DNA of 64,000 nucleotides from a virus. The notes under the pieces were generated by a model. That model searched no databases and had not been told where the DNA came from. It worked only from the letters and a program-made list of their open reading frames with translations. The position numbers were made by a program, and so were the translations under genes. The stretch is from positions 1 through 64,000 of the IMG/VR virus record IMGVR_UViG_3300032291_002123. The stretch is one strand, 5' to 3'. Positions 18,291 through 50,966 of this stretch are shown here, piece after piece (the first letter of the stretch is position 1; every line of letters begins with the position of its first letter).

Positions 18291-18427
18291 TGTTCCTCCT
18301 AAGGACAGTTGTATGAGAGTATTTCCCTCATTTGCTTTTCGGTACAAGGCAAAGGGACTGAACGCAACGTGGCGTAAAGGCGCTCCACCTGAACACTATT
18401 CTACAATAGATTTCTATTGTTTATTAT

Positions 18428-23643: not shown

Positions 23644-24318
23644 TTACTCGACGCCTTCCTGCGTTGGTTCAGCGGCATATCTCTTAGCCTCTTCAACTGT
23701 CATAATTCCAGTGTTAGCATCCAAAGTTTGAATCAACTCGTCTGCACTGTTTGGGTCAATCTCAATGGTGTCTAGATTCTGGTAAGAATTAGTGGAGATG
23801 TCTGCCTCAATCCAGTTGGCTTCATCTCTAGCATAGATACCAAAATTACTCATATAAACCAATGAAGTTATACGCTCGTCACCCTCACGATAGTAAACAT
23901 ACATAGCCTCGAAGACGGGAGTGTCGTCTGGGAGTTCTACGCCAAGAATTTTTTCAATCGCTGGCTTAGACTGTTTAATTATAGTCTGATATAGAACAAC
24001 CAATGGGAGAGCAGTTTTGTATTCAGAGAGCCATTCGCCGTCAGACTCAGTTAAATCTCTAATCAGGTAGGCAGTTCCGTCTACAGAAAATTCCACGTCT
24101 CGAGTGAGACCTACGGGGATTAGTTCCTCGGGGTTTACTTCGTAGTAACTAACGCTTCCGCTAGGAAATAAGACATACAATCCAGCAAACTCTGGCTCTC
24201 TGTCATAGTAAGCGCCGATAACTGGCTGATATGTATTTGCAGTTTCAAGAATGCCGACAGTGCCAAAAACAGGGGCAACTGTCTCTGACTTCATGTCAAA
24301 ATCTGGGCGTTGTGGCAT
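23644..24318 (-). CDS. Hypothetical protein (acidic, 224 aa)
   Basis: ORF with GGAG RBS, abutting the protease gene. Confidence 0.7.
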   Translation of the reverse strand: MPQRPDFDMKSETVAPVFGTVGILETANTYQPVIGAYYDREPEFAGLYVLFPSGSVSYYEVNPEELIPVGLTRDVEFSVDGTAYLIRDLTESDGEWLSEYKTALPLVVLYQTIIKQSKPAIEKILGVELPDDTPVFEAMYVYYREGDERITSLVYMSNFGIYARDEANWIEADISTNSYQNLDTIEIDPNSADELIQTLDANTGIMTVEEAKRYAAEPTQEGVE

Positions 24319-24382
24319 TTAATCTCCAACTACAAATATCTATAATCAATAATACAGTAAAAAGATAGTAGTTATAGAACTA

Positions 24383-24616
24383 CTAGACCCAGTCGGACGG
24401 GATATCTAGGTAGTCACCGTCTTGAACAGGGTTGTTCTGTAGTTCCTCGGTGACCTTGTCCCAGTATTCATCAAAAGCATCGCTCTGATTGTATGGAACT
24501 TTAATATATCTAGAGGTAGCCTCTTCTGCCGAGATACCTCGAGAAATCATCACCAACACCTGAGACATAATAGAAGCGTCTAGTGGTTGCTGCTCTGGTT
24601 CATCGTATAGTGCCAT
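24383..24616 (-). CDS. Small acidic protein, candidate immunity/antitoxin
   Basis: 77 aa; second small gene after the 3866-aa protein. Confidence 0.55.
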   Translation of the reverse strand: MALYDEPEQQPLDASIMSQVLVMISRGISAEEATSRYIKVPYNQSDAFDEYWDKVTEELQNNPVQDGDYLDIPSDWV

Positions 24617-24644
24617 AATTACCTATCTTTCCTAAGGCTATTCA

Positions 24645-24869
24645 CTAATCCTCTAAAGCCTTAAATGCTTCAGGGAAAGCCTCTTTAGCGGTAGCCTCGT
24701 CGATTTCATCATCTAGCCAGTCTTCGCCAATTAAATATCTAAAAACCTTATCGGTTTTGTTCCATTTGATTTTGTACCAAGATTCTTCGATTCCCTTACT
24801 AGGGTCAAATCGATAAAGAACTAGCGGCTTTGTGCTGTTATCATTTTCGTAAAGAACAAAATATCTCAT
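24645..24869 (-). CDS. Putative immunity protein for the RelA/SpoT-like C-terminal domain (paralog of 36954..37169)
   Basis: 74 aa; MRYF..YRFD..GIE.SWYK..W..TD.V...EIDE.TAKEAFP.AFK shared with its paralog. Confidence 0.7.
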   Translation of the reverse strand: MRYFVLYENDNSTKPLVLYRFDPSKGIEESWYKIKWNKTDKVFRYLIGEDWLDDEIDEATAKEAFPEAFKALED

Positions 24870-24883
24870 AACTTAATTCTATC

Positions 24884-27800
24884 CTATCCCGCCTCTAATC
24901 GGAATCTTTGTTCGGTAAGTTTTCCAAGTTTTAATAGTTTCCCGTAACCCTCGGGGTCTGGTATTTTTCCAGCAATACCAATCATTTGCTCATAAAGGAG
25001 TTCTTTCCTTTTAAGAAGGTTAGGGTCAATATTATTCTTGTCAATGTTAATTACTCTATATTGCTTCAAAATAGGGTGGAGTTCTGACTTAATCTTTAGA
25101 GATTCTGGGGTATGCATCTGGAACTCAACGGTTACTCCATTTTTAGTCAGTTTCATGTTGATACCTCGATAAGTATTTTTGTAAGAGTTTTTAGGCTCCC
25201 AGAAATTTTTAGGTATTACTTTGTAGCCCATATCTTCGAAACGGTTAATAAGAGCCGAAGTCGCCTCGGTGTACCTAGCATTGTCTACAACCATCGTATA
25301 TCTAATGGCATCAGAAAGTTTTTCTGCTGCCAAATCAAAATTACCATTATATTCATTGACAGCGTCGCCTTCAATTTTTCTAGCCAACGAGTCAGTAGTT
25401 TTTAGGCGGTTAGCCAGAGAAGTCAAGTCTCCCTTAAAGTAATTAGCCAACGTGACCATAGTATTGGTAATTTCTGGCTCTAGTTGCTCGGCTCTGCTAC
25501 GAACTTTTTTAGCAGCCTCTACTGCCTCAGGGCTGTAAGTTTTTTTGATAGGCTCCTCTTTTACTAAAGGTGGAATCTCAATTTTCTTGAAAACATCTTG
25601 ATTAGAGCCATTTGTTCTTCCATTTCTTATTTCATTTGCACGAGCATTAATCTCAGAAATAGGAGCATTGTCTAAAATCATTGACAACAGTTCTCTGTTT
25701 TGAGCAATTGCTTGAGTGGTTAGCCCAGTCTGAGTAGATAGGGTGGCAATTGCGCTTCTAATTTCTAGGACTCTAGGGTCAGAATCTTCCAAGTCAGAGG
25801 CTTCAATTTTATTCTTGCCAGCCTCTCTCAGCCTGATTCTTTCTTCCCTCTGACGCTCTGCTTTCTTTTCTCTGTAGAATTCTTCACCCTTAGCGACTAC
25901 ACCTTCAATTTCTTCTTTGCTGAGTTTAGACAATCCCATAAATGAAGACCATAGAGCAGGTTGGTCATACTTGAGTTCACCGCTCTCATTGGTGTGAGCC
26001 ACGTCAATATATGCGTCTGGCTTAATGACATCGCCAGTTGCCTTATCTACTTCTTTAGGCTGTCTGTAGATTAAGTTCCAAGAATCGAATAGCGAGGCTA
26101 CGTTACCGTCAGGGTTATCTGGGTTCAGTAGGTTAGACAGAGTAAAGTAAATATCGTTCTGAGTAGTGCCTGGAACGTGTCTACCAGTTCGGTCTTTTCT
26201 TAGTTTGGCGCTTCCAATTGCTACTGGCAAGTCAGTAGTCATATACAACCCAACGGTGTCGTAATCTTTCTTCTTAGCCTCTACTAATTTTTTCTCTATA
26301 CTTTTACGTTTACCGTCACCAGTTCCGTCATAGACAATATCCAACCCACGCTGAAGCGCCGCTTGCTGCAACATTTTTGCAAGCATAGAAGACTCTTCGT
26401 GCGAGTTTTCAGCCCACTTCCCATCTTCTTCGCCAGTTCTAAAGATGGCACGTAGCCCTAGAGATTTCTCTACTCGTCTCATCATTTGGCGAGCGTGCAT
26501 TTCCCTTACCTCTGGCAAAAGAATCTTGATAGTATCAGGGTCAATTACTACTGCGCCCGGAGTCAATCCAGCAGGCATAGCCGCTTCTTCTCCAGTAACA
26601 TCGTCAATTTCTCTGACAGGAGGAATGCCATATTTTTTAGCGAGTTCTCCAGGTTTTCCAGTTTTTTTGTCGTATTTGGTAAATCCGCCCTTGCCCGAGG
26701 CAGGTCCTCCACCCAAGAAGAACATCTTCGGCTTTCTACCCTTAGGAGGCTCGATTCCAGCGAGTAGTTTCTCTATAATCTTTTTTTGAGCCTTTACTCT
26801 GTCTTCATCAAATACTAGGTTTCCCTTACCATCTCTCACCATGTGTCCACCAGTAACGGTAGAGGAGAACATAGAGTTGTAAGCCTCATAGTCAAGTTCA
26901 TCTTCTAGAACAGTGCCGTCATCTAAAGTCAGCCTGTAAGTGTTCTTCCCATTTTCTGTTTCTGATGCAAAAAGAAGCCTGTCTTCAGCGTTCTTTAGAA
27001 TTATCTGTTTGATTTCTTCGTCAGAGGCAGTTCTAGGAACTTTAATGTAAGTAGCCTTTTCTTTATCCCCTAAGTCTTTAGGGTCTAACCAATAGGCAAT
27101 TTTTTTACTCTTAAGTATCTTGGTTTTAGATACGTGATAGATAGGTAGAGTTCCATCTGGAACTCCATCTATTGAATTAAACGAGATATTGAAAGAGCCA
27201 TCCTCGAGGACGTTATTTTCTTCAATCATGTTGTCCTGAGCAAGTTGCATAAATTTAGAGGCTGGAGGCTGGTCAACTACCACCCTAGAAACAGAGTCTC
27301 CCAAATCTTCATCCTCTGGATTTTGAGCAGACCGAGGGAATTCAAAATCAGGTTCAGGCTTTGTAGGGTCATCTGAAAGCCAGTTCAGAACCGCAGCCTG
27401 AGCGATATTTCTATCTGAAAATATCTGAGTTGAGTAAGCAGGTAAGTAACTTTGACCTTCTCCGCTCATCCATAGTTGCGTAGAGTATGAGTCGTCTTGA
27501 GAAGCGTATGCCCTAGGCATTTTGGTGATTCTACCGCTTCTGCCAGTGGATGCAGATTTGTAGACCCTAACATTGTTATCTACATCTTCTACTGTAACCC
27601 CTGCGTCCAACACGCTCTGAGGCAGTGGCAAGAACGGCGGTTCGGTAATTACTTCTGGCTGCTCGCCACTGATTGATGCAGGAGAGCCGTCTGCTCGTCT
27701 GAGAATCTCTAGGTGCTTAGCAACGATAGGAGTTCCCTGAGCACGACCATCGAACTTAACAACTAGAACGTCAGAGTATGAGTAAGTTCCACCAGGCTTT

Positions 27801-30800
27801 TGGTTGACTGATAGAGGTCTACGCTTTCTAACGATACCTTCCTTGATAGTTCCGTCTGCGGCATAGTGACGAACACGGTCACCAACACGAACAATGTTCT
27901 CGCCATCTCTAGACATGTAAGGAATTTGGTTCACACCAGGGAAGGCACGGTTAGCCTGAATTCTTTCGATAATGTCATTAATCTGAGAACGGCTAACAAT
28001 GTTCTGGCTTGATAAACGTAGCAACAACGAGCCAGTATCAACCTTGCGGTCAACTAGGTCTGCAACGTAACCAATCAAAGCATCTTTAGTAGCATCTCCA
28101 GTTGCTTTAATTCCAGTGTTACCAATGTATTTGGTGTCCAGTTGTTCTGGTGCAAGACTACGAGGAATTGGTAATCCAGTTCCAGGGTGGATTACCTCAG
28201 CCTGACGATTGTTTCCTTGGTTGAACCAGTTTCTTGGGTTACGACCAAACACACCTTTACCTGAGGTATTTCCCCTAATAAGCGGAGCAATCTGGTTCTT
28301 CAAGTGAGTTGAAGAGTGGGTAGAAACGCTAATCTTGTTTACAGTAGTAGTGCCAATTACTTCTCCAGCGGCATTAATTGGAGTCTCACGAACGTAAGTA
28401 ACAAAGTCTTCATTTGGCTTGCGGTGGACAACAATTTCATACTTGTATGTATCTCCACCAGCAGTGGTGAAATCACGAGAAGAAACTATTAAGTCACCGT
28501 TTTCTAACTCCACATGCTTAGGGTAGGTGTTCTTAATGTCCTGAAGAATTGCAGTGCTTCTAGCAACGTGTTGGTTCTGATAGTCGTTTCTTGCTTCTCT
28601 GTTTTGAGCACCCTCTTCAATATCAGACTGCATTGGACGTGCTTCTTTGCCGTAAGCATAGGTAAGTTCCAAGGTTGTGGTGTCATCACCAGCGTATGTT
28701 CTAAATTTGACTTTTTTAGTTGCATCTACATATGCAACTGTTCTTCTACCATCGCTGCCTACGGAGTTGAATACTACACGACCCTCTTCCCTGAGTCTTC
28801 CATCTTCATTGGTTCCAACTAAAATGTCACCAAACTTCAGGTCTGCAACTAACTTAGAAATAGGATTTGAATCCTCAGGGTGTGCTCCGTAAATAGTGGT
28901 GTCCACGCCATTTTGAATTGCATTGTTTCGTGCATCTTCAATTTCGTTGACAGCATCTGCTGCAGAAGTAGCAGGCTGCGTTCTTTCGGCAAGCATGGCT
29001 TGCATTTCGGAAATCTTATTCCTAATCCAAGGTCCGCTTCTAACGTCCATAGGTCTTCTTGCGAACCCGTCGAGAATTGCATCCCGCTTTTCTCGGTCTT
29101 CTGGGTACAAAGCGTAAGCCAACTCAACAAACTTATTTGTCTCTTCTGTAGTTGCATCTAGGGCAGTGCTTACAGGTTCTTTCTCTAGAGTTTGAAGAGC
29201 CGCAATTCTATTGTCTAACTCTGCAGCGGTTATTTTTCCTGCTTGCTGCTGATTGTAGAATTCTGCAAGATAGGCTTCCTTCATTTTGTCGTCAGTTATC
29301 TTGGCATTTACTAGGTCAAAGAATCTACTTACCTGCTCTTGGCTAGGTCTACTAACCTCATCTGCACGAGAATAGTCGTCTTCAATGCCATAACGGTCAA
29401 GAATAGCCTTACGGCGAGCAATTAGAGCAGTAGCAATACGGCTACGGTCATTAGGGTCTCGAATAATCTCAGAAATAGCATTGATTTTATCTGGAGTCAG
29501 AGGAAGCACGGTTGCTCTGGTGTATTGCTTCATCTGGTCATCAGTTAAGCCTTCAAGAATACGCTTACGTCCGTTGTAACCAGGTAGCCAGTGCCAACCA
29601 TTTGGGTTAAGGAAGAAGTCGAGCGAAAAGTTGACACCTTCTCCTTCAAATGAGCCGTCACGAATAGCAGCATCCATCAAAGCCTTTTGCTCTGGGGTGG
29701 CGGTGCGTAGCCACTTATCACGCCCGCCTGCGAGACGGCGTTCACGCCCGTCAGGGCCTTTAGGACCTTGGTCTGGGATTGGGTCCCACATCAGGGCACC
29801 GCCACCGTCAATACGAACGATGTTGCCGTTCTCGTCGATTACGGTGTTGGTTGAGTTGAACGGCCCGTCAATGTGGTCAAGCAAGATGTCAGCAGGTAAT
29901 CCGTGACGAACAGCCTCAAGAATCGGGTTCTTAGGGTCGCTATCCCAGTGGAGTGCTCGGTCATAAGTGGTTCCATCAGTTGCTGCAGGGATAAACTCTG
30001 TGACAACAAATTCTTGTCTGAGACCAGCAAAGCCAAGGTCTCTGGTTCCACGCTGAGGCTTAGACGCTCTAACGCCCATTGCACGGTAGAAGGCTTGGGC
30101 AGCAATTTCTTGGTCTTTTGCTCTCCAACCCCAACTATCGTCTTCGCTAATATCAAAACTCTTAACTACATACTTCTTACCAGTAGCAGGGTCTTGCATC
30201 AAAAATGGTGCATTAACTCCACCGCTAATTTCGCCAGGCAATGAAATAAAAGAGTCCAAGTCAATCTCGGTGTTTGCGTGAGCAATAATAGATGACACTG
30301 ATTCTGGAGTCATCAATCCAACTTGGTTTAGAGCGGCTTCGTCAACTGGTTGACGTAGGCTGGTAACACGCTTCTTCACTAACTCGTTAGTGTCTACACC
30401 TTGGTACTGTAGAGCATCACGGATTGCAAGAATATCTGTGGTTTGCACATAACTTGTGTCGTTGAACCTAAGTTGAACTGAAAGTCTACGGTTGTTCAAA
30501 GCATCAACAAATCCGTCTTCTAGAGCCTTGCCGTCAAAGTTATTTGCAATATATGCAGCACTGCTTGCTCCGCCATCTAAACGTTTTTGTGTAGCATCAA
30601 CGGAGTTGGGGTTATAAGTTCCGCCTAATACGTTGTCTTGTCCGTCATCTAAGTCGAACACTTCATTGTTAGACAGAAGCGGGAATCTTGGTATCCCGTT
30701 ATTATTTCTAAATTGATTAGGTTTTCTAACGCTATTTACTACTTGTGCTACTGTGTCGTAACTGCTATCTTCCATGCCACGAAGTTCTGCTTCAGGCAAT

Positions 30801-33800
30801 CCTCGAGTTACCCTATTAGAAGTCAATCCCTCTTGAGCAAGTAGTTTGTCCATCTCAGCAATTAAGTCTGCTTTAGGGTTAGGCATTGCCTTTACTGCGT
30901 CAGCATTTGCCGTTCCACCGTTAATACCGTCTACGGTTGGAACAATCCACTTATTGTATTCTTTTGTTCCAATTTGACTGATAAGCGCTTGAACAATGGT
31001 TTTAGGCGCAAGGTATCCGATTTCTGGCTTGCCGTATTTTCTACCAAAATTCAGTTCAGCAAAATTTTCAGTCACAGGTTGCTTGTTGCTGCTAAGCGCA
31101 TTAACAAGAGAGTTTTTAAGTTCGTCTTCGCTAAACCTACGAGCCAAAATTTGGGAATCGTACTGCCAGCCATCAGGCTCGTCTTTGCCAAACAATTCTT
31201 TATAGTTAGTGAATTTAACAATAGGGACATTAAATTCAGTGTCGTCATTAATTAGTTCGGTGTTTTTACCAATAAGATTTAGCGGCTTTTCAGGCAGAGA
31301 AGTGTCACCGTAAGGGCTTCTCTTAACGGTCTTAAAAGAATCCTTAGCAAAAGGCTTAGGACGCTCTATACGATTGTCTACGTTATCTAGTTGTTCCTTG
31401 TTATTTTCTAACAAAGTAATAAGTTCGTCCCTAAAACTAATAACGTTTTCGTAAGTCTCGATGTTCCTTCTGCGGAAATAATCACCGATGTTAGGGTTTG
31501 CAGTTACCTGAGCGTCATACTTATCTTTAAAATCAGCAAGTTGACTTCTCTGCTCTTTAATAGCATTGATTACATCATCCGCTGACCTGCCGTCTTTGTA
31601 TGACATGTCAGTAATCATTCTTCTAAGAGAGTGAGAGTCTATTTCTCCCGCTTTTTTCTCAACGAAGTTTTTCATAAATGCAGGGTAATCTTCGCCAGCA
31701 ACAGGATTGTCGCCTCTTGTATAGTCGTTTCTGACTCTTTCCATTAATCCGTTAAAACCTTCGTCTACGGTGTAAAGAGGTCCTGTCATATCGCCAGAGC
31801 CAGTTCTATACCCAGTAGGGTCTAGTGGCAAGTCAAATCTCTCCAAACTTCTTTGGGTGCCGCCAAGTTTAAAAATTCTGTCTGATTTGAACCAGCCGTT
31901 ATCACGCATGACATCATAGATTGGAGCCTTCATCATCCAAAGAACTTTTTCCGCTTGACTTTTGTTGTGACGGTCAGGGTCTGCTGGGTCAATTCCCTTA
32001 GAGTTATTAGCGCCCATACCAGTTAAGGTACCGCTGTGGGCAAAGTGGCGACCAGACTTTTCTACAGCCAAACGTGCAAACGTAATGCTTGCTCCACCGA
32101 TACCGTCTTGTTGGTAACGAGGGTAGGTTTTCAACATGCCTGGAGTTACTGAATACTTAAAGTCAGCACCTCGGGCTGCTTCACCAGTCCAGTTAACGGA
32201 TACGTAACCTGCGTTAGCACCGATGCTTCCGTCTTTTTTAATAGTTTTTGTATAAGCAGTGCTGCCATCCCATTTCATAAAGTAGACTTTTCCACTCTTA
32301 GAAACGTATAAGCCTTCCATACTGACAACTTTTTCTTCGCCATTTTCGGCATCTCTGTTGTTAGCCGATGTGAGGATAGAATCCTCAAAAACTACAAAGT
32401 TACTAATGCGGTCTGCTTCTCCAGAGCCAAACCTATAGTCTTCTCCCCTAGCCTCTGAGTTGGCTACTAATTTTTGGATAGTTTTAGTGGTAGCAAAAGC
32501 CATGTTGTAGTTGAACTCGTAAGCACTAGTGTTGCCACCTTGCGCTGCAGACTTCAAGTTTTTCAGTGCGTTATTTCTAGCGGTTACTAGGCTTCTCAGA
32601 ATCGTTTTCTGAGAGTCGCTCAACTTACTGCGGTCAATAGTTCTGGTGTTTAGTTGGATATCTGCTAGTCGGTCACCAGCAATTGTTGCCGACATGTCTG
32701 GTTGGTTTTGCTCCAACTTTTCAAAGTTCATTGGTGCAGTTCTGACTAGTTCGCCTAGTCTGCTATTAAACGGGAACAGTGGATTCTCGTTAATTTCTAC
32801 TTCATGCCACTCTTCGTCTCTAGCCATTTGCGCCCAGATGTTGTCATACAAGGTTTTAAGAGCGGTTGTGTATTCTTCTGGAGTCTGAGCAAGTTCTGCT
32901 CTGTTATAGAAATAATCTATTTTGTCTGCGGTGAAAAACTCGGTAATGTCTTCGTCAGCGAGCATCTCATCGACCAGTTGCCTAAATTTCTGCAGGTGGG
33001 TGTCTTGGCTTGGGTTGTCGCCTAAGTCTTCGTCTCCGCCTTCAGGAGTAGAATCCATACGCTGAACTGACTCTGACTCTAAAGCGCTCGGCGCTGTTTT
33101 CTTAGCCTTGTTCTTCTTTACAACGTTGGCGATAGAGTCAACAAGTTGTGCAATGTCCCCGACCTCAAACTTGAGGTTTTCGTTCTTTAGGTAGCCGTTG
33201 ATTAGAGAGTTGGCAACCTGCTGCAAAGTGTCTACAGTCTGAGCAGTGCTGGTTGAGTTGGTTAGGTTAGAAATTACTTGGCTAACGTTAATTACGTTGT
33301 CTTTGTCTTTAGACAAAGTAGGAGACTTAAGCATGGCATCGCCTAGGTCGTCAACGTCTAGAGCAAAACTCTCTGTGCTTTCAATGCGAGGAGTGCCAGA
33401 ATCTGGATTAACGTTAGTGCTTAATGACTTACCAGCAGTTCTTCCATACCAATAAAGGTCTATGGCTGCTTCACTAGCCTCACTGCTTGAAGCAATTCCA
33501 AACACTCTATCCCTGCCACCAGAGTGATAGAAGTCGCTGTAGTCCATTCCTAGGTTAGAAAGTTTTTCTAGAGCAGAAGAAGTCTCTCCCTGAGCGAGAA
33601 GCCTATCGATTTCTGCGAAACGTTTTGCAAACTTACGTTGCTGCTTAGGGACACCATTAGCGCCGTTTATCAATAGTTCACGAGATGCTCTTACAAAATT
33701 CTTAGCGTCTTGATTTACATCCCCTGTTGCTGGAACGTTAATTAGTGCGTCAGAACTAGGAAGGATTTGTCCTAATTCTTTACCTCTATCCATTCGCTCA

Positions 33801-36484
33801 GAATAGACAGATGAAGGAATGACGCCATCGACTTTTAGTCGGTCTGCTGACCACTCATCTGGGATATTAGAGATTCCCTCAGTTCTGCGACCAACTCGGC
33901 TTTCTCCGCCAAGGTCTTCGTCTCCCAGTCGTCCGACAGAATCAACTCTGTCACGACTCTGTCTTGCGAGTTCACGTTGTTTTCTTGCTCTGCCACGGTC
34001 TCCAGTACCTCCTGTGTCGATGTATTGCTTGTTGCTTAGTTTAAATATACCTTGCTGGTTACGGTCTTGTCCAGCGGTTTCTGCTTCGGCTTGGTTAGCC
34101 TCAGGGAAAAGTTCGATAACGTCGAGAGTTACCTCGTTGTTGTCCTTGTCGTGCCAAGTGCCGAGTTTAAAGCCGTCACGGAACTTAGCCTTGTTGTCGT
34201 CTAGATACTTAGCAAGCGCCAAGTTACCTAGTTTTTCGTCAAAGAAAACTGTGTCTATAACTTCTTCGTTGTCTCCCTGTAAGGCTACAGAGATACCCTT
34301 ACGAGGCTGCTTCAAGGTCATAGGGTCTAGAGTTGCACCGCTTTTACGACCTGTAATCTTCTGAATGCTGTCTGCTTTACCAACTACTTTAGGTTTAGCA
34401 GCCTTGCCTTCGCCTTTATTTTTGAAGTGCTCTAGAAGAGAGTTAGCAAGGCGGTCATAAAGGTCAGCCTTGTCTACTTCACCGTTAGCGCCAGCCTCTT
34501 CAATGAGGTCAGACATATACATAGCGGTGTCACGTGCTTGCAGAATGTTTTCGTCTTCAGAGCCAGCGTTGTTGATGTCAATGCCAGAGTCTTCTAGTTT
34601 CTTAAGAACGCCATCTAAACCAGACTGCTCTGCCTCTAGACGAGCCTTTTCTGCTGGCTTCTTCTTGTTTACTTTGTCTATGTTACGCAGTGCAGTTGCA
34701 GCAGAAGTAATTCTGTTAGAAGCACCACGCTCTTCTGGGGATAGGAAGTTTTTGCGCTGTGACTCTTCGGCAAGAATCTTGTCTTGAGAATACTTAGGAG
34801 ACTTGTCTAGAAGAGGCTGAATGTCTGCGCTAGAAGCACCAGAATCAATTGCCTTTGCAATCTCGCCATCGGTGTCATAAACAGCCAAGTTTGACTTGGC
34901 GCTATCAATCAGACGCTCATTGTTATCAGCAATAATGTTCGGTGCTATTTCCTCGAACTGCTCTAGGCTATCTACTTGGTTGTTTGCGCCGTTGCCAATA
35001 ACAATTAGCCCTCTGCCTTGCGGCTTTGCGTAGAAAGAGTTTCCGTCAAGGATACCGATGGTTTCGTTTTCTTTGCCAACGACTGGATACCAAGCCATCT
35101 TGTCGTCGCTGCTAGGTGTGAACGTGCCCTCTAGAAGCGATTGAGCGACTGACTCATAAGCGGCAAACTTAGTGCTGAAGTTGTCAACTTCGTCAATCTT
35201 TGCCAACTCAGCGTCGACGTTCTTCTTAAGTTCAGCATCAGGGTTATCTCCGAATAGCGACTCTGCTAGTTCTGGATTTGCTTCGGTAATGGTGTCTTGG
35301 AAATTTTTACGGCGACGGTCATAGAAGTCGTCTTTAGGTGCTGGAGAACCTAGGTCTTCGTCAGCAGGTGTTTCTGAAGATTTCTTAGTTAATGAGTCTA
35401 GGTTGCGCTTGTATTGTTCGTAAGCGGCATTACCCTCTTTGCTTAAGTCGTTGCCGCCATTAATGCTTTCTTGGACGTCAATTCCGACTGGAGTTTCGAA
35501 GTCCCTTACGATTTCTTCGTACTCTTCTTCGCCTCTTTGAGTAATTTTCTTGTCAATCGTAATCATCACTGTGCCGAGGTCTGGCTCGTGAGTTACTGCA
35601 ACTACCTTGCCACCATTGTGCGCCAAATCTGGGTCTGACTCAGTGTCTCTGTTGTCTATTAAAACATCTCCGACAACTACATCTTTTGCTAATTTCTGTG
35701 CGGCATAGGCTACCTGAGGCTCTCTAGGTGCAGGTGCTTCTTCGGCTTCCTGCTCCTGAGGGAAAAACCTTTCTCTAAGTTTCTTAATTGACTCACTTTC
35801 CTTAGCCATATCCTCCGGTGTTGGACGACCACGTCCATCGATGTACCTAGGGTTGTTCGTCCACCAGTCATCTCGTATGTATTTAGACAAGTCAACATTT
35901 TGCTTTTGCATCTCTTCTAGGTCAGCCTCGTCAATCTGGGCAATGACTTTTTTGCTTTCGTAAGCAGGTGCATCTAGACGAGCCTTAACCTGAACGTCTT
36001 TTTCTTCGGCAGTTACAGGGTTGTCAATGACGTCTTGGTCTTCAGGAGTTAGGTCAGTTCGAACAAGGTCAGCAAACTTAGGGATGCCGTCGCTAGGAAC
36101 TAATCCCTTAACCTTGTTTCCGTTGACGTCGATGTTCTTAGAAACTAGGTAGTTCTCGTCTAGGGTGGCAGCAACCTGCTCGATTGACTCGCTAGGGAAT
36201 TCGTAGACGCCAGTACCTAGGATTGGGTCGTTGTTGACGTAAAAACGTCCATAACCCTCACGGTCAGAGTTTCCAAGGAACTTACCAACAGTAGAAGCAA
36301 TTTGACCTAGTTTGTCTAAGAAACTGAGTTTAGAGTCTCTACCCATCTCGACCCAGCGACCAAGACGGTCACGCAACTGACTCTTAACACGGAGGCTACG
36401 AGCGAGAGAAGAGTTGCCGCCAACGGCTACTAGAGACTTTAGTGGTGGAAGGTTGGAGTCTTTGCCCTGAGGGTCAACAGCCAT
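24884..36484 (-). CDS. Giant multidomain (polyvalent) head-region protein, 3866 aa: GNAT-like, HipA/PI3K-like kinase, zeta-like P-loop kinase, C-terminal RelA/SpoT-like domain
   Basis: GNAT-like YQQDGIG..HSGTLTGMG (~32.1 kb); kinase GGVN..KKYVVK..EIAAQAFY..N..IVRIDGGGAL (~29.8-30.2 kb); zeta-like FFLGGGPASGKG..IDPDTIK..HEESS..IVYDGTG (~26.1-26.75 kb); RelA/SpoT-like RLKTTDSLARK..DAIRYT..YRGIN..EFQMHT. Confidence 0.8.
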   Translation of the reverse strand: MAVDPQGKDSNLPPLKSLVAVGGNSSLARSLRVKSQLRDRLGRWVEMGRDSKLSFLDKLGQIASTVGKFLGNSDREGYGRFYVNNDPILGTGVYEFPSESIEQVAATLDENYLVSKNIDVNGNKVKGLVPSDGIPKFADLVRTDLTPEDQDVIDNPVTAEEKDVQVKARLDAPAYESKKVIAQIDEADLEEMQKQNVDLSKYIRDDWWTNNPRYIDGRGRPTPEDMAKESESIKKLRERFFPQEQEAEEAPAPREPQVAYAAQKLAKDVVVGDVLIDNRDTESDPDLAHNGGKVVAVTHEPDLGTVMITIDKKITQRGEEEYEEIVRDFETPVGIDVQESINGGNDLSKEGNAAYEQYKRNLDSLTKKSSETPADEDLGSPAPKDDFYDRRRKNFQDTITEANPELAESLFGDNPDAELKKNVDAELAKIDEVDNFSTKFAAYESVAQSLLEGTFTPSSDDKMAWYPVVGKENETIGILDGNSFYAKPQGRGLIVIGNGANNQVDSLEQFEEIAPNIIADNNERLIDSAKSNLAVYDTDGEIAKAIDSGASSADIQPLLDKSPKYSQDKILAEESQRKNFLSPEERGASNRITSAATALRNIDKVNKKKPAEKARLEAEQSGLDGVLKKLEDSGIDINNAGSEDENILQARDTAMYMSDLIEEAGANGEVDKADLYDRLANSLLEHFKNKGEGKAAKPKVVGKADSIQKITGRKSGATLDPMTLKQPRKGISVALQGDNEEVIDTVFFDEKLGNLALAKYLDDNKAKFRDGFKLGTWHDKDNNEVTLDVIELFPEANQAEAETAGQDRNQQGIFKLSNKQYIDTGGTGDRGRARKQRELARQSRDRVDSVGRLGDEDLGGESRVGRRTEGISNIPDEWSADRLKVDGVIPSSVYSERMDRGKELGQILPSSDALINVPATGDVNQDAKNFVRASRELLINGANGVPKQQRKFAKRFAEIDRLLAQGETSSALEKLSNLGMDYSDFYHSGGRDRVFGIASSSEASEAAIDLYWYGRTAGKSLSTNVNPDSGTPRIESTESFALDVDDLGDAMLKSPTLSKDKDNVINVSQVISNLTNSTSTAQTVDTLQQVANSLINGYLKNENLKFEVGDIAQLVDSIANVVKKNKAKKTAPSALESESVQRMDSTPEGGDEDLGDNPSQDTHLQKFRQLVDEMLADEDITEFFTADKIDYFYNRAELAQTPEEYTTALKTLYDNIWAQMARDEEWHEVEINENPLFPFNSRLGELVRTAPMNFEKLEQNQPDMSATIAGDRLADIQLNTRTIDRSKLSDSQKTILRSLVTARNNALKNLKSAAQGGNTSAYEFNYNMAFATTKTIQKLVANSEARGEDYRFGSGEADRISNFVVFEDSILTSANNRDAENGEEKVVSMEGLYVSKSGKVYFMKWDGSTAYTKTIKKDGSIGANAGYVSVNWTGEAARGADFKYSVTPGMLKTYPRYQQDGIGGASITFARLAVEKSGRHFAHSGTLTGMGANNSKGIDPADPDRHNKSQAEKVLWMMKAPIYDVMRDNGWFKSDRIFKLGGTQRSLERFDLPLDPTGYRTGSGDMTGPLYTVDEGFNGLMERVRNDYTRGDNPVAGEDYPAFMKNFVEKKAGEIDSHSLRRMITDMSYKDGRSADDVINAIKEQRSQLADFKDKYDAQVTANPNIGDYFRRRNIETYENVISFRDELITLLENNKEQLDNVDNRIERPKPFAKDSFKTVKRSPYGDTSLPEKPLNLIGKNTELINDDTEFNVPIVKFTNYKELFGKDEPDGWQYDSQILARRFSEDELKNSLVNALSSNKQPVTENFAELNFGRKYGKPEIGYLAPKTIVQALISQIGTKEYNKWIVPTVDGINGGTANADAVKAMPNPKADLIAEMDKLLAQEGLTSNRVTRGLPEAELRGMEDSSYDTVAQVVNSVRKPNQFRNNNGIPRFPLLSNNEVFDLDDGQDNVLGGTYNPNSVDATQKRLDGGASSAAYIANNFDGKALEDGFVDALNNRRLSVQLRFNDTSYVQTTDILAIRDALQYQGVDTNELVKKRVTSLRQPVDEAALNQVGLMTPESVSSIIAHANTEIDLDSFISLPGEISGGVNAPFLMQDPATGKKYVVKSFDISEDDSWGWRAKDQEIAAQAFYRAMGVRASKPQRGTRDLGFAGLRQEFVVTEFIPAATDGTTYDRALHWDSDPKNPILEAVRHGLPADILLDHIDGPFNSTNTVIDENGNIVRIDGGGALMWDPIPDQGPKGPDGRERRLAGGRDKWLRTATPEQKALMDAAIRDGSFEGEGVNFSLDFFLNPNGWHWLPGYNGRKRILEGLTDDQMKQYTRATVLPLTPDKINAISEIIRDPNDRSRIATALIARRKAILDRYGIEDDYSRADEVSRPSQEQVSRFFDLVNAKITDDKMKEAYLAEFYNQQQAGKITAAELDNRIAALQTLEKEPVSTALDATTEETNKFVELAYALYPEDREKRDAILDGFARRPMDVRSGPWIRNKISEMQAMLAERTQPATSAADAVNEIEDARNNAIQNGVDTTIYGAHPEDSNPISKLVADLKFGDILVGTNEDGRLREEGRVVFNSVGSDGRRTVAYVDATKKVKFRTYAGDDTTTLELTYAYGKEARPMQSDIEEGAQNREARNDYQNQHVARSTAILQDIKNTYPKHVELENGDLIVSSRDFTTAGGDTYKYEIVVHRKPNEDFVTYVRETPINAAGEVIGTTTVNKISVSTHSSTHLKNQIAPLIRGNTSGKGVFGRNPRNWFNQGNNRQAEVIHPGTGLPIPRSLAPEQLDTKYIGNTGIKATGDATKDALIGYVADLVDRKVDTGSLLLRLSSQNIVSRSQINDIIERIQANRAFPGVNQIPYMSRDGENIVRVGDRVRHYAADGTIKEGIVRKRRPLSVNQKPGGTYSYSDVLVVKFDGRAQGTPIVAKHLEILRRADGSPASISGEQPEVITEPPFLPLPQSVLDAGVTVEDVDNNVRVYKSASTGRSGRITKMPRAYASQDDSYSTQLWMSGEGQSYLPAYSTQIFSDRNIAQAAVLNWLSDDPTKPEPDFEFPRSAQNPEDEDLGDSVSRVVVDQPPASKFMQLAQDNMIEENNVLEDGSFNISFNSIDGVPDGTLPIYHVSKTKILKSKKIAYWLDPKDLGDKEKATYIKVPRTASDEEIKQIILKNAEDRLLFASETENGKNTYRLTLDDGTVLEDELDYEAYNSMFSSTVTGGHMVRDGKGNLVFDEDRVKAQKKIIEKLLAGIEPPKGRKPKMFFLGGGPASGKGGFTKYDKKTGKPGELAKKYGIPPVREIDDVTGEEAAMPAGLTPGAVVIDPDTIKILLPEVREMHARQMMRRVEKSLGLRAIFRTGEEDGKWAENSHEESSMLAKMLQQAALQRGLDIVYDGTGDGKRKSIEKKLVEAKKKDYDTVGLYMTTDLPVAIGSAKLRKDRTGRHVPGTTQNDIYFTLSNLLNPDNPDGNVASLFDSWNLIYRQPKEVDKATGDVIKPDAYIDVAHTNESGELKYDQPALWSSFMGLSKLSKEEIEGVVAKGEEFYREKKAERQREERIRLREAGKNKIEASDLEDSDPRVLEIRSAIATLSTQTGLTTQAIAQNRELLSMILDNAPISEINARANEIRNGRTNGSNQDVFKKIEIPPLVKEEPIKKTYSPEAVEAAKKVRSRAEQLEPEITNTMVTLANYFKGDLTSLANRLKTTDSLARKIEGDAVNEYNGNFDLAAEKLSDAIRYTMVVDNARYTEATSALINRFEDMGYKVIPKNFWEPKNSYKNTYRGINMKLTKNGVTVEFQMHTPESLKIKSELHPILKQYRVINIDKNNIDPNLLKRKELLYEQMIGIAGKIPDPEGYGKLLKLGKLTEQRFRLEAG

Positions 36485-36555
36485 GAAATTAACTCCTGGT
36501 TAGTTAAACTGCGTAGTTGTATAACCTAAAGTATAGCAATCAAATAGTGTGCTTA

Positions 36556-36954
36556 TTATTCAACAGCGCCATCCGGCAAAGTTGTGTAGCGACTAATGTC
36601 AGGGTAATTGCCTTCATACTTAAAAGGTGCATAATTATTATACACCTCTCCGATGGCTAGCATTACAGACACAGGGTCATTAATGTCTTTTGGATAGCGA
36701 CCAAAGTGCGAGAACTGAATGTATTTATCTTCTTCTGGCACTCCGTCGCCCAAGTCATTAACGTTTGGGTTTAAGAACCACCTGACATTGAAGTCATTAA
36801 TTTTTCCTTCACCGTCAATCTGGTAATACTCAATCACCTGTGAGTTATTTAAGGTGACAGTCCATCGGCTTTTTTCTAGGCTGCCGTCTTTAACTGCGGC
36901 ATCGTATTTCTTTTGGTCATCTCGAAGTTTCTTTTCAAATTCTTTGTCGTCCAT
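36556..36954 (-). CDS. Hypothetical acidic protein, candidate immunity protein
   Basis: 132 aa; translationally coupled to the preceding small gene. Confidence 0.6.
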   Translation of the reverse strand: MDDKEFEKKLRDDQKKYDAAVKDGSLEKSRWTVTLNNSQVIEYYQIDGEGKINDFNVRWFLNPNVNDLGDGVPEEDKYIQFSHFGRYPKDINDPVSVMLAIGEVYNNYAPFKYEGNYPDISRYTTLPDGAVE

Positions 36955-37169
36955 TATTTTGAATCCTTAAATGCTTGGGGAAACGCTTCTTTGGCGGTTT
37001 TCTCGTCTACTTCCTCAAGCCAGCCGTCACCTAGGACTAAAAACTTAGATACGGTGTCGGTATCACTCCAGCGAGTTTTATACCAAGACTGCTCTATACC
37101 AGATTTTAGGTCAAAACGGTAGACATTGATTGGAATGCCGCCCGAATTGGTCGAAAAGAAATATCTCAT
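36954..37169 (-). CDS. Putative immunity protein for the RelA/SpoT-like domain (paralog of 24645..24869)
   Basis: 71 aa, immediately after the 2976-aa ORF; clear paralog of 24645..24869. Confidence 0.7.
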   Translation of the reverse strand: MRYFFSTNSGGIPINVYRFDLKSGIEQSWYKTRWSDTDTVSKFLVLGDGWLEEVDEKTAKEAFPQAFKDSK

Positions 37170-37178
37170 GTTTTTATC

Positions 37179-40100
37179 CTACAACTCAAACTGTTGTTGC
37201 ACAAGGGTTCCGATGTTCAATAATTCATCATAGTTATCTGGGTTTGGAATCTGAGAGGCAATACCAATCATTTTTTCCCAAAAAAGCATTTTTGCGTCTA
37301 ATTTATCTAGGTCTTGACCTTTTTCGGTGTCAATTTTTCTATATTCTTCGTAGATTTCGTGTAGTTGGTCTACCTTAATTTGTAGTGATTCAGGGGTATG
37401 CATTTGGAACTCAACGGTTACGCCATTCTTGGTGAGTTTCATGTTGATGCCTTGATAGGGGTCTCCACCCTCCCAGAAGTTCTTAACCCTAACTTCATAG
37501 CCCATCTGCTCAAATCGAGCAATTACTCTACGAACTGAGTCTGTGTACCTAGAGCCATCTACCGTCATGGTATAGCGAATGGAGTCAGACACCTTTTCTG
37601 CTGACTGGTCTATGTCGCCTTCGAAATCTTTGTTAGCGTCATCCTTGATTTTACGAGCCAACGAGTCTGTGCTCTTTAGACGCTGGTCTAACTGGTCTAA
37701 GTCACCGTCAAGAGTTTCAGCCAAAGTGGTCATAATCTTGGTAACTTCAGGTTCCATCTGCTCGGCAAGTTTTCTTACCTTCTTAGCAGCCTCTACTGCT
37801 TTGGGGTCACGGTCTTTTTCAAGCGGTGGCTCTTCAGCAAGAGGCGGAATTTCAATCTTCTTTTTAGTGGCAGTTCTATAAGTTCCTAGGTCTTCATCTT
37901 TATTTTCGCCTTGAGACTGAACTCTATCGGTTTCTGTTGAAGGGTCGACTACAATTATAGCCGAGGTATTGTAGATAACGTAATCTCCAGAAAATCTACT
38001 CCATCCTTCACCTGAAACAGCCCCGTTGCCGTCTGCTGCAAAAACTACAAATGGGGCGTCTGAGTCATACATATACTTATCCCCGTATCTATCAGCAACT
38101 TCCCTTCTCAAGGCGGTTCTATCTTTGTAACTTCTTAGTAGTTCATTAGGGACGAGCATTTCCATAACTGAATAACCTTCCGAACTTGCAAACTGAGATG
38201 CTCTGCTATAGTTTGTAGAAACGTAAGTTCCAGGACCGATAACGCCATTTCCAATAAACGGCTTACCGTCAACTAACTCTTGAGAAGCATTATTGGGAGC
38301 ACCCCTAAAAATTCTTGTCAGCCCCAGTTGAGCAGCGCTATTCCAAAGTTCTCTAAATTCATCTTTTGTTACGCCTATTGCTGGTTTATCCCACCCTTGA
38401 GCCTCGATAACTTCTTTCATTTTTCTAAAATCTGTCTTATATCCATTGTTTTTTGGATTGTCTTCTTCTTGCCCCCTATTCATAGGATATGAACCTAAGT
38501 CAATCTTCTTTCCGATTTTTGCTCTTTGGACGGCTTCATCAGCAACGGCATTTAAATCTTTAGGAGTAGGTGAGCCTAAGTCCTCGTCAGTGGGGGTCTG
38601 TGAAGATTGAACCTTGCCAGCAAATTTTTCTCCGTCATCAGTTAGGTTCGAACTGTGGTAAATAGGCATTCCAGCATTTGTTCTAGCAAACTCTAGAATC
38701 GCTGTAGCGAGACCCCTACGTTGGAAATCTTCGTCAACTTCAATCATGTTAATAGTAGAGAAAGGCTTGAATTCATCAAAATTAGGGTCGTCTAAAGAAC
38801 TACCGCCTATGGCATCGGGCCACCAGCGTCTTGAACCGTCAGGTAGGGTCTCTGAGGGAGGCTCTGCATAAGTGACTAATGCTACAGGATTTATGTCTAC
38901 TTCTCCATTAGGTTCATACGGGTACGCTAGCACTTTGCCATATCGTAGTTCTTCTCCACGCTGATTAATACTCCATCTATCGTCTCTAACTAACTGGAAT
39001 CGATTACCGTCGGCGTCAGTGTATTCGCCAGTTTCGGTGATATTTTTGCGTTTACCTTCTTCCGAGATTTCAGTTTCTAGGTTGTTATCAGACTTAACAC
39101 GCTTTCTAATTCTTTTTTGGGGAGTTAGGTCTGCGTCCTTGTCTTGGAATACAAGAGTAAATTCTTCGCCTAGGTCTTCTTCCATAACTTGGCTAGAAGA
39201 TTGGACAGCGTCTGCGAAGCGAGACCCAGATGGAGTTCTGGTTGCGTCGTGATAGATAGGCATGCCAGCGTTGGTTCGGGCAAACTCCATCATTGCAGTA
39301 GCAATACCTTCACGCTGTAGGGAGTCGTCTACTTCAACCCAGTCGACGGTAGTGAACGGCTTGGTGTTATCAATTCTCACATTTTCTGAAGAGCCACCGA
39401 CCTCGGTTTCATCCCACCTTAGTTTTTCTCTAGAGTTATCGTCGACTATGTAATAAGACTTTGCTTCAGAGTAGTAGAACGAGCCAATGGGCCAAGGGTC
39501 AACTTCCGTTGGCTCGATGAAAGAACCTGCGCCTGTGTCGTAAGCACCTTCGGCAGGTAGATATGCCTCTACGCTTCCTCTGCTTAAATACTCTCTGCCT
39601 TCATTGTCGATGTCCCACTGGTCATGGCGAGACAGGATAATCTTTTTGCCATCCTTGGTAACGTATTCACCAGTCTCGGTGACGGTTCTAACCTTAGGGA
39701 ACTCTTTGTTGGCAAACTGACCGCTTAGGTCTAGTTCTCTAACGCTGCTTTTTAGGTCATTGTTAGATTTAATGCGACTCTTAATTTCTTCTTGAGCGAG
39801 TCTTTTTTCCTCAGGTATCTTGCTTGTCACCCTTTCGAACAGAGCCTGAGAAGGAGAGACTCTGTCACGGACATCGCCGAGGTCTTCATCGAGAACTTGA
39901 GCAGGAGATTGGACTCCTGCAGCAAACTCCCTACCATCTTCGCTTAAGTGCTTGCTGTGGTAGATAGGGAAGTCAGTGTCGCTGCGAGCCGCTTCTAGCA
40001 TTGCAGTTGCTAGCCCACGGCGTCTGAACTCATATCTTACTAAAATGCCAGAAATTGTGTAGTAAGGCTTGTCTTCATCCACTTGGCTTATGTTGACGTC

Positions 40101-46127: not shown

Positions 46128-46634
46128 CTAGAATTGAATAACTTGAACTTGTGTTGCGTCTGCACCAACGATGGTGCCAAGTTGCCATAGCCACTTGTCA
46201 TGCATGTCGATGCGCTCTGCAAGGAAGTTTATGATTCCCTGCTGGTTTAGAGCATTTGCGATTTCAAACGCCTCGAGCAGTGAGTCACGAAGAGTTTGGT
46301 TAATTCCGTGAAGAACTAAGGACATGGCAACAGGGTCGCCACCAGTTGGGCGAACCTCGATGCAAGAAAGACTTACGAAGTCTTGCAAGGTGAAAGGTGC
46401 GTCGTATCCGAGTTTACGAATGTGCTCAGCAAGTGGGTCAACTGCACTGTCTGCATCTTCGTAAAGTTTTTGGAAGAACTTGTGATACTGACTAAATTCA
46501 ATGCCACGAACGTTCCAATGAAAACCTTGAGCGGTGAACTTGTAGGCAGTGGTGTCTGCAAGAAGGCAAGACAACTTATGGACTAGTTCTTGCTTGCCAA
46601 CGCTAGCGCTGAGTTCGATTTCGATGTTTTCCAT
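46128..46634 (-). CDS. dps: Dps / ferritin-like DNA protection protein
   Basis: Dps ferroxidase signature FHWNVRG..YHKFFQKLYE..DPLAEHIRKLG..HDKWLWQL. Confidence 0.9.
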   Translation of the reverse strand: MENIEIELSASVGKQELVHKLSCLLADTTAYKFTAQGFHWNVRGIEFSQYHKFFQKLYEDADSAVDPLAEHIRKLGYDAPFTLQDFVSLSCIEVRPTGGDPVAMSLVLHGINQTLRDSLLEAFEIANALNQQGIINFLAERIDMHDKWLWQLGTIVGADATQVQVIQF

Positions 46635-50429: not shown

Positions 50430-50966
50430 ATGAATGACAATGACGGCGCACAATCGGCAAGCGATACCAGAGAATCATTTGCGGCAATAGACCGCAGAAC
50501 TTATCCGAAGTATACGCCCGTATGGTCAGAGATTCTGCCAGGCTTATGGCAAGGCGGCACATTAGATTCTGATAAGCACAATCAATACGCCGTACCGCTA
50601 ATCTCAAAGAGAGAGTTCGATTCGGTATTTACTTTGTATGCTCACGCCAATCCTGTTGATTGGTTTGTGAAAGAGTTTCGATTTGGGTTTATGGATAGCG
50701 ATGATACTGAGTTTGACACGGCACTACTAAAAAGAGTTGTTGCTCTTGCTCACGGCGATTGGAAGCGTGGCGAGAAAGTTCTCATTAGATGTCAAGCAGG
50801 TCTCAACCGCTCAGGCATAATCACCGCACTAGTTCTTATTCGTGATGGTCATTCTCCGAGCGAAGCAATTACTCTAATGAGAGCGAAGCGGAACGATTGG
50901 GTTCTATTCAATCCACACTTTGAGAAGTGGATTCTCAAACAATCACCGCAAGAGTGGCAAGACTAG
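50430..50966 (+). CDS. Dual-specificity (Cys-based CX5R) phosphatase
   Basis: SEILPGLWQGG; P-loop VLIRCQAGLNRS; AITLMRAKR..NPHF. The only convincing plus-strand gene. Confidence 0.85.
   Translation: MNDNDGAQSASDTRESFAAIDRRTYPKYTPVWSEILPGLWQGGTLDSDKHNQYAVPLISKREFDSVFTLYAHANPVDWFVKEFRFGFMDSDDTEFDTALLKRVVALAHGDWKRGEKVLIRCQAGLNRSGIITALVLIRDGHSPSEAITLMRAKRNDWVLFNPHFEKWILKQSPQEWQD

Follow-up and report, generated by a model that had tools for sequence, protein, structure and literature searches.

Among the described systems closest to the toxin and immunity genes examined here, which occur as two copies in the first 64,000 nucleotides (64 kb; hereafter the window) of the 102,065-bp linear IMG/VR virus record IMGVR_UViG_3300032291_002123 (CheckV completeness 76%), is the Apk2/IapK/Aph1 system, which belongs to the MuF polymorphic toxins of temperate phages (Streptococcus pneumoniae, Mannheimia haemolytica, Pasteurella multocida and Bacteroides caccae; PMC12226406, PMC10083569). 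At known Apk2 loci, the gene for the MuF-Apk2 protein is followed by iapK (68–72 aa) and, in the Streptococcus, Mannheimia and Pasteurella examples, by aph1, which encodes an HD hydrolase. IapK is reported to neutralise Apk2 toxins, and the Apk2 toxin domains (Apk2tox) of S. pneumoniae and M. haemolytica produced only (p)ppApp in vitro (PMC12226406). The residues RYT, GxN and xH have been assigned to adenosine-type enzymes, and a swap of these signature residues did not turn Apk2 into a guanosine enzyme (PMC12226406). A further relative is SaEAS, an exported alarmone synthetase of Streptomyces albidoflavus whose structure, 8vx3, was deposited as SaSAS; VpEAS and AaEAS are alarmone synthetases that make (p)ppGpp (PMC12691689). 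The polyvalent proteins of phages and conjugative elements described by Iyer et al. (2017) include giant phage proteins encoded by late genes, in which RelA/SpoT, GNAT, ART, kinase and metallopeptidase domains are found, with two to fifteen effector domains per polypeptide; these proteins were predicted to be packaged in the head, processed and injected (PMC5512222). Work on (p)ppApp synthetase toxins of phages has so far been confined to MuF fusions in prophages. The record analyzed here has two copies of the same toxin-immunity pair, each placed at the end of a giant head protein with multiple effectors, and shows no sign of lysogeny.

The source of the record is an uncultured siphovirus-type phage, of which the window is the structural arm, and its host is probably a freshwater actinobacterium. 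Two giant proteins encoded among the head genes, giant 1 and giant 2, each end in a toxin domain, and each of their genes is followed by a small gene, imm1 and imm2, respectively (Table 1). With good confidence, we regard the giants as two head-associated polyvalent proteins, both bearing a pyrophosphokinase toxin of the Apk type, and the small proteins as IapK/Tis1-like inhibitors that would each neutralise the neighbouring toxin. This reading is carried by the homology, the fold, the intact motifs, the strict adjacency of toxin and immunity genes, and the duplication, all of which are direct observations.

The C-terminal domains of the two giants (~235 aa) are 57% identical over 232 aa (BLASTP, E 1e-91). 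As described in an earlier note made from the sequence alone, both domains start with KKIEIPPL and contain the strings RLK.TDSLARKI, D.IRYTM, KNFWE and Y.GINMKLTKNGVTVEFQMHTPESL, all of which were confirmed in both copies; the DNA-level similarity reported in the same note is real but moderate, amounting to 68% over 488 nt for the toxin regions and 74% over 73 nt for the small genes. Exactly two copies of the toxin and two of the small gene are present in the 102-kb record. In a phmmer search of the PDB, the toxin domain matched SaEAS (8vx3, E 4.5e-11) and Tas1 (6ox6, E 0.027). A model of the domain generated with AlphaFold 2 (AF2) on the basis of 30 homologues had a mean predicted local distance difference test (pLDDT) score of 92.5, and a Foldseek search with this model identified SaEAS 8vx3 (E 2e-11, template modelling (TM) score 0.69–0.82) and Tas1 6ox6_A (E 2e-8), followed by RelP, FaRel2, RelQ and RelSeq, with SpoT and CapRel ranking lower; all of the matches below E ~1e-3 are alarmone synthetases or toxSAS enzymes. 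A tblastn search of 50,697 phage records matched 131 of them, and the best matches came from phages of Pasteurella, Mannheimia and S. pneumoniae, where the matching “head morphogenesis” (MuF) proteins (29–34% identity, best E 2e-18) are Apk2 toxins. Among the PHROGs, toxin domain 1 matched phrog_2859 (E 7.6e-37) and phrog_7625, annotated as “head morphogenesis” (E 1.1e-22), the matched part of the profile being C-terminal.

The catalytic motifs are intact. R71, K73, S77, R80, K81, D103, R106, Y146, G148, N150, E161, Q163, H165, T166, H178 and R185 are the same throughout a set made up of the two copies and three characterised Apk2tox sequences, and the motifs syn1 R/K/S/R/K, D..RYT, Y.G.N, E.Q.HT and H..Y...R do not vary across it. 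In both copies, syn1–syn5 are complete, including the Asp of syn2 and the Glu of syn4, and the RYT / GxN / xH signature is present. The comparison with Tas1 and Apk2 that the earlier note had called for was thus made at the level of both structure (Tas1, E 2e-8) and sequence (29–34% identity to Apk2tox, with shared syn motifs). Sequence and predicted structure place the toxin domain among the pyrophosphokinases with a RelA/SpoT fold, in the Apk1/Apk2/SaEAS clade, and its enzyme class can be regarded as settled. A search for related loci with the single toxin domain as query found none in viral contigs.

The small genes located downstream of the giants are paralogous, as had been noted; their products are 52% identical (BLASTP, E 5e-25), 71–74 aa in length, and encoded no more than 15 bp after the respective giant, thereby matching iapK in size and position. 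No match to the small proteins was found in Pfam, PHROGs or the Atlas, and pairwise BLASTP against IapK was not significant. A profile search of 1.84 billion representatives delineated an immunity family of 88 clusters, which consists mostly of proteins of ~70 aa with the pattern MRYF...YRF...W...W...G...EV.E..A...FP.AF. When this family was compared with IapK using hhalign, a local match was obtained at 62.9% probability with a three-sequence profile and at 86.5% probability (E 4.5e-6) with a seven-sequence profile, from which Ralstonia phage matches were left out because their layout was too different. The hidden Markov model (HMM) of the family scored the seven IapK sequences at 4.7–16.6 bits, with four of the seven surpassing the 99.9th percentile of 2058 shuffles; IapK of S. 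pneumoniae, which has been studied experimentally, scored 14.5 bits, a value that one of these shuffles reached. In an exhaustive VIA-align search with the AF2 model of imm2 (71 aa, pLDDT 93.9), Tis1 (6ox6_B) ranked second among 48,161 chains (Z 3.9, root-mean-square deviation 3.6 Å, 57 residues); the score alone is weak, and the rank of that specific chain is the informative part.

The strongest support for the immunity reading comes from locus context. A total of 80 IMG/VR loci (L006–L085) encoding a toxin homologue at 41–48% identity were collected; in 78 of the 80, the start of the family domain is located at -21 to +66 nt relative to the stop codon of the toxin, and the other two end less than 70 nt after it, so that toxin and immunity domain are adjacent in all 78 loci with enough downstream sequence. 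A profile search with the close immunity alignment found nothing in viral contigs or in genome contigs. The proposal that Apk-type toxins are accompanied here by small cognate immunity proteins is supported by sequence, fold, motif and gene-neighbourhood tests, and imm1 and imm2 are predicted to be IapK/Tis1-like immunity proteins that would act by binding. In the ~58–60 kb relatives, the immunity domain forms the N-terminus of a ~250-aa protein (e.g., L051:6738-7469 and L027:6684-7679), the remainder of which is a prohead serine protease of the XkdF type (E 4e-11 to 4e-13 for Pfam Peptidase_S78_2). This fusion suggests that inhibitor and toxin go into the prohead together and that the inhibitor is degraded when the head matures; its presence in dozens of relatives gives a hint of the way in which a toxin could be loaded in inhibited form and armed later.

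The toxins are attached to carriers of polyvalent type. GNAT families were detected at several positions in giant 2 (Pfam E 1.9e-24 to 4.6e-06), where six units were read by eye, and Zeta_toxin was detected in giant 1 (Pfam E 5.2e-13, residues 3310–3450); each giant thus combines such effector domains with a RelA/SpoT-type domain at a head-gene position, which is the make-up of a polyvalent protein. Apart from the toxin regions, the giants have in common only their N-terminal ~87 aa, which are 40% identical, and one linker. A HELGH motif, a candidate for the embedded zincin-like metallopeptidase by which polyvalent proteins are processed, was seen by eye in giant 2, in a segment for which Pfam and PHROG gave no peptidase match, and the reading of other modules as ART or protein kinase is by eye only, because PDB sequence searches with the presumed ART-like module, the 600-aa middle of giant 1 and the Zeta-containing segment gave nothing useful. 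No MuF-type PHROG was found in the eight segments of giant 1 upstream of the toxin or in residues 1–1264 of giant 2. The carrier domain of the 60-kb relatives matches a neighbouring 1737-aa protein and not the giants. This 1737-aa protein contains a prohead-protease-like region and stretches resembling the N-terminal carrier of the relatives’ toxin proteins (phrog_2859 positions 164–267), indicating that carrier and toxin are located on separate polypeptides in this phage.

The modules of the giants are bounded by the tetrapeptide EDLG, which occurs 13 times (nine in giant 2 and four in giant 1), whereas ~0.2 occurrences would be expected by chance (our own estimate, from typical residue frequencies), and which is absent from every other open reading frame (ORF) of at least 60 aa in the 102-kb record. 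Its context is usually longer, of the VQS..Q type and ending in EEDLG or DEDLG, and EDLG is kept in close relatives. These features make it a candidate protease processing site. The last EDLG of giant 2, at approximately residue 2743, is positioned 8 residues before KKIEIPPL, such that cleavage there would release a 234-aa toxin; in giant 1, there is no EDLG between the toxin domain and the Zeta-like module, and the toxin would stay attached to that module. Packaging of the giants is suggested by their position in the head module and by analogy.

For product identity, binding, packaging, cleavage and timing, we propose the following scheme. The giants would be incorporated into the phage head, cleaved at their EDLG linkers and brought into the cell together with the DNA. 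In the cell, the toxin would transfer pyrophosphate from ATP onto the 3′-OH of ATP or ADP, most likely yielding (p)ppApp, such that the adenylate pool would be drained and host metabolism or defences would be shut down. The 71–74 aa inhibitor would bind the toxin directly, block its acceptor site and, at the time of late synthesis, protect the cell in which both are produced. Should the inhibitor additionally be transcribed from a leaderless promoter belonging to its gene, it could turn off the toxin once this has been injected.

Immunity-family genes were also identified without any toxin, in four metagenomic contigs (L086–L089), in a region located between ilvC and sbcD/sbcC (island L087:3869-10753). 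The protein encoded by the ilvC fragment is up to 92% identical to that of metagenome-assembled genomes (MAGs) of freshwater Micrococcales/Microbacteriaceae and 89% identical to that of a Rhodoluna MAG, and these contigs are bacterial chromosome, from a freshwater Microbacteriaceae-like lineage that is a likely host lineage. The copy of imm1 adjoining ilvC shows 82–84% amino acid identity and the copy of the 77-aa gene that follows it shows 80–82%; the region of both genes is 80% identical in DNA over 500 bp to positions 24377–24873 of the window. In L086 and L087, the two genes are fused in frame to form one 172-aa ORF (P0234; L087:10235-10753). The 77-aa protein, for which no match was found in Pfam, PHROG or the Atlas, is probably a functional partner of imm1, since its gene travels with imm1 and is fused to it; it may be a second immunity protein, perhaps an antidote to the Zeta-type kinase of giant 1.

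In L087, three further ORFs separate the fused gene from a reverse transcriptase with a full-length match to the defence family RT_UG17 (E 1e-103), which is followed by a DHFR-like gene and an HD_4 gene resembling Aph1 (45% over 55 aa, E 3e-8). A second immunity-family gene, 43% identical to imm2, starts 3 nt after the HD_4 gene. The arrangement in which orphan imm1 with its next gene and the Aph1-like HD_4 gene with a second family member flank a UG17 reverse transcriptase is a new finding of this analysis, and the literature searched yielded no publication dealing with orphan immunity of the IapK type to phage toxins. The four contigs differ from one another by 4–16% in DNA and in island content. 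Assembly chimerism was considered as the origin of the orphan cassette and rejected, because the same arrangement is found in four contigs of at least three strains, which are 84–96% identical. The cassette is absent from all 80 of 80 reference ilvC loci. It is possible, although the case is a doubtful one, that the host lineage captured the antidotes as an anti-phage defence and that the two diverged (52–57%) cassettes represent the phage’s counter-move in an arms race; if true, a host with one captured antidote would still be poisoned by the other toxin. Orphan immunity clusters are known from type VI secretion, and the arms-race reading would parallel them. The presence of antidote genes in the defence island of a likely host makes the purpose of virion-delivered toxins directly testable.

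The sequence points to (p)ppApp as the probable product of the toxin. The earlier note held that the motif variants fit (p)ppApp toxins, and this claim is borne out in part: the RYT / GxN / xH signature and the homology to Apk2tox agree with it, but SaEAS is bifunctional and makes both (p)ppApp and (p)ppGpp despite carrying the same residues (PMC12691689), so that the signature alone does not fix the product. A toxin that makes (p)ppGpp, or both alarmones in the manner of SaEAS, would cause a forced stringent response rather than ATP depletion in the host. This is unlikely but carries appreciable weight, given that the promiscuous SaEAS is the best match in both sequence and structure, that VpEAS and AaEAS make (p)ppGpp (PMC12691689), and that motif swaps left the specificity of Apk2 unchanged, so that the motifs are not the determinant (PMC12226406); the phage-borne Apk2tox relatives that have been tested, however, yield (p)ppApp exclusively (PMC12226406), and the orphan immunity genes of the likely host adjoin an HD_4 gene whose similarity to Aph1 lies in the N-terminal HD region. 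It is very unlikely that the toxin is a tRNA 3′-pyrophosphokinase like CapRel, FaRel2 and PhRel2, which would block translation without making an alarmone: FaRel2 and CapRel do appear in the Foldseek list, as the fold is common to all toxSAS, but at E 5e-4 to 7e-3 and TM <0.45, compared with E 2e-11 and TM 0.7–0.8 for SaEAS/Tas1, and the sequence relatives of the toxin are Apk2 toxins and not CapRel. As to the small proteins, a role as assembly chaperones or packaging adaptors for the giants, instead of inhibitors, is brought to mind by the fusion of the same domain to an XkdF-type prohead protease, an assembly protein, in the ~60-kb relatives; such a role is highly improbable in view of the homology to IapK, a reported neutraliser of Apk2 toxins (PMC12226406), the structural match to Tis1 (rank 2 of 48,161, Z 3.9), and the chromosomal orphan copies, which lack phage head genes and lie beside an alarmone-hydrolase-like gene. 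Besides the dual activity of SaEAS, several results weigh against two Apk-type toxins with cognate inhibitors. The Pfam profile RelA_SpoT gave no match to the toxin domains up to E 1, only noise, and neither Phage_Mu_F nor any other head-morphogenesis Pfam was found in either giant. No match to Aph1 or HD_4 was found anywhere in the 102-kb, 76%-complete record. The hhalign match to IapK is confined to 22–34 C-terminal columns, a Foldseek search of the PDB with the imm2 model gave no match, and a Z of 3.9 for Tis1 is in the range of chance arrangements. The virion location of the giants and their cleavage at EDLG have been arrived at indirectly, and ATP depletion would harm the replicating phage too, which makes the benefit doubtful.

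The mode of expression of the small genes was also considered. The -10-like hexamers pointed out in the earlier note, TAGAAT for imm1 and TAGGAT for imm2, are indeed present, and each ends exactly 6 nt upstream of the ATG. Across the 113 genes obtained by greedy calling over the whole record, TANNNT is found at exactly -12 to -7 in nine, as compared with a rate of 1.2% among all ATGs (binomial P 1.4e-5); a Shine-Dalgarno site is lacking in seven of these nine genes, including terL (upstream of 52351), and a further example of TANNNT is located upstream of 62187. TANNNT at this position without a Shine-Dalgarno site is the look of leaderless transcription in actinobacteria, and leaderless transcripts of the actinobacterial kind are probably in use in this phage, for which the chromosomal contigs independently indicate an actinobacterial host. 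For the immunity genes themselves, the suggestion of leaderless expression is upheld by this genome-wide enrichment and tempered by the junctions, where a simple scan found no two-hexamer sigma-70 promoter and where imm2 has an AGGA 7 nt before its ATG, inside TAGGAT, that could equally serve as a Shine-Dalgarno site. Leaderless expression is plausible at about even odds, and translation from a late transcript is compatible with it as well. The chances fall somewhat short of even that the small genes are translated solely from a long late transcript via AGGA and coupling, with no promoter of their own and with incidental hexamers. Under this alternative, the TAG of TAGGAT is merely the stop codon of giant 2, the gaps of just 9 and 14 nt and the negative sigma-70 scan are readily accommodated, and the common position of the hexamers in paralogous copies does not amount to two independent events. 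The alternative fits less well with the enrichment of TANNNT at starts without a Shine-Dalgarno site and with the arrangement at imm1, in which the nearest AGGA is shifted to ~11 nt from the ATG, a poor Shine-Dalgarno distance, yet a new TAGAAT is correctly placed at the -10 position.

All of the toxin-locus genes are on the minus strand. The giants have the portal gene on one side and the protease and major head genes on the other; their surroundings comprise genes for the large terminase, the portal, a head maturation protease, the major head protein and the tail (Table 1). The 132-aa ORF that follows imm2 occupies the position of aph1 but was rejected as an Aph1 candidate, having no HD motif or match; it had no match in Pfam or PHROG, and an Atlas search was uninformative. 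The ferritin/Dps-like gene between portal and giant 2 is in an unusual location, and the phosphatase-like gene adjoining terL is the sole sizeable plus-strand gene of the stretch. A blastn search with the cassette gave no match in the 50,697 phage records. Neither a tyrosine integrase nor a serine recombinase/resolvase was found in the 76%-complete linear record, a coverage too low to establish the lytic lifestyle that the earlier note suggested.

Table 1. Positions of the predicted toxin-immunity cassettes, their carriers and neighbouring genes in the window.
Feature	Position	Strand	Remarks
Major head protein	16290-18347	-	tail genes beyond
1737-aa protein	18428-23641	-	prohead-protease-like region
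224-aa gene	23644-24318	-	
77-aa ORF	24383-24616	-	after imm1
imm1, 74 aa	24645-24869	-	paralogue of imm2; 14 nt after giant 1 stop
TAGAAT, candidate -10 box	24876-24881	-	-12 to -7 of imm1 ATG
Toxin domain 1	24884-25588	-	paralogue of toxin domain 2
Giant polyvalent protein 1, 3866 aa	24884-36484	-	shared N-terminal domain, four EDLG, Zeta-toxin-type P-loop kinase, toxin domain
132-aa ORF	36556-36954	-	coupled to imm2 by overlapping TAATG
imm2, 71 aa	36954-37169	-	predicted IapK/Tis1-like; 9 nt after giant 2 stop
TAGGAT, candidate -10 box	37176-37181	-	-12 to -7 of imm2 ATG; its TAG is the giant 2 stop codon
Toxin domain 2	37179-37883	-	predicted RelA/SpoT-fold pyrophosphokinase (Apk/SaEAS clade)
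Giant polyvalent protein 2, 2976 aa	37179-46109	-	shared N-terminal domain, HELGH, six tandem GNAT units, another module, C-terminal toxin domain
Ferritin/Dps-like gene	46128-46634	-	Pfam Ferritin, E 3.5e-14
Portal	46644-48458	-	
Dual-specificity phosphatase-like gene	50430-50966	+	adjoins terL; PHROG E 3.3e-14
Large terminase (terL)	50963-52351	-	

In comparison with known systems, the locus resembles Apk2/IapK in its homologous toxin (29–34% identity, with all syn motifs), in its placement in the head module just past the portal, and in the ~70-aa inhibitor gene directly downstream, which has detectable similarity to IapK. It is not Apk2 in the strict sense, as no MuF domain and no Aph1 were found: the carrier is a polyvalent protein of three to four thousand residues, whereas that of Apk2 is a MuF domain of ~300 aa; two diverged cassettes are present per genome, without an aph1 hydrolase gene; and there is no sign of a temperate lifestyle in 76% of the genome of a phage whose host is probably actinobacterial. 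The Tas1 (Apk1)/Tis1 pair of Pseudomonas aeruginosa (6ox6) is similar in that the toxin is recognised by Foldseek (E 2e-8) and Tis1 ranks second of 48,161 chains for the immunity model; it differs in its delivery, which is by PAAR and type VI secretion (T6SS) rather than, as proposed here, by the phage head, and identity is just 16–19%, with a weak Tis1 match (Z 3.9). SaEAS is the closest solved structure and the closest in sequence (E 4.5e-11, TM 0.69–0.82), with the same RYT / GxN / xH residues; unlike the phage toxins, it is exported via Sec and lacks an immunity gene, and its products include adenosine as well as guanosine alarmones (PMC12691689). The giants share with the polyvalent proteins the combination of many effector domains in one giant polypeptide encoded among late/head genes (PMC5512222). 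The term “immunity protein” does not occur in the text of that report (PMC5512222); in the phage described here, in contrast to the polyvalent proteins, each giant is accompanied by a dedicated immunity gene, and its modules are split by a fixed EDLG linker.

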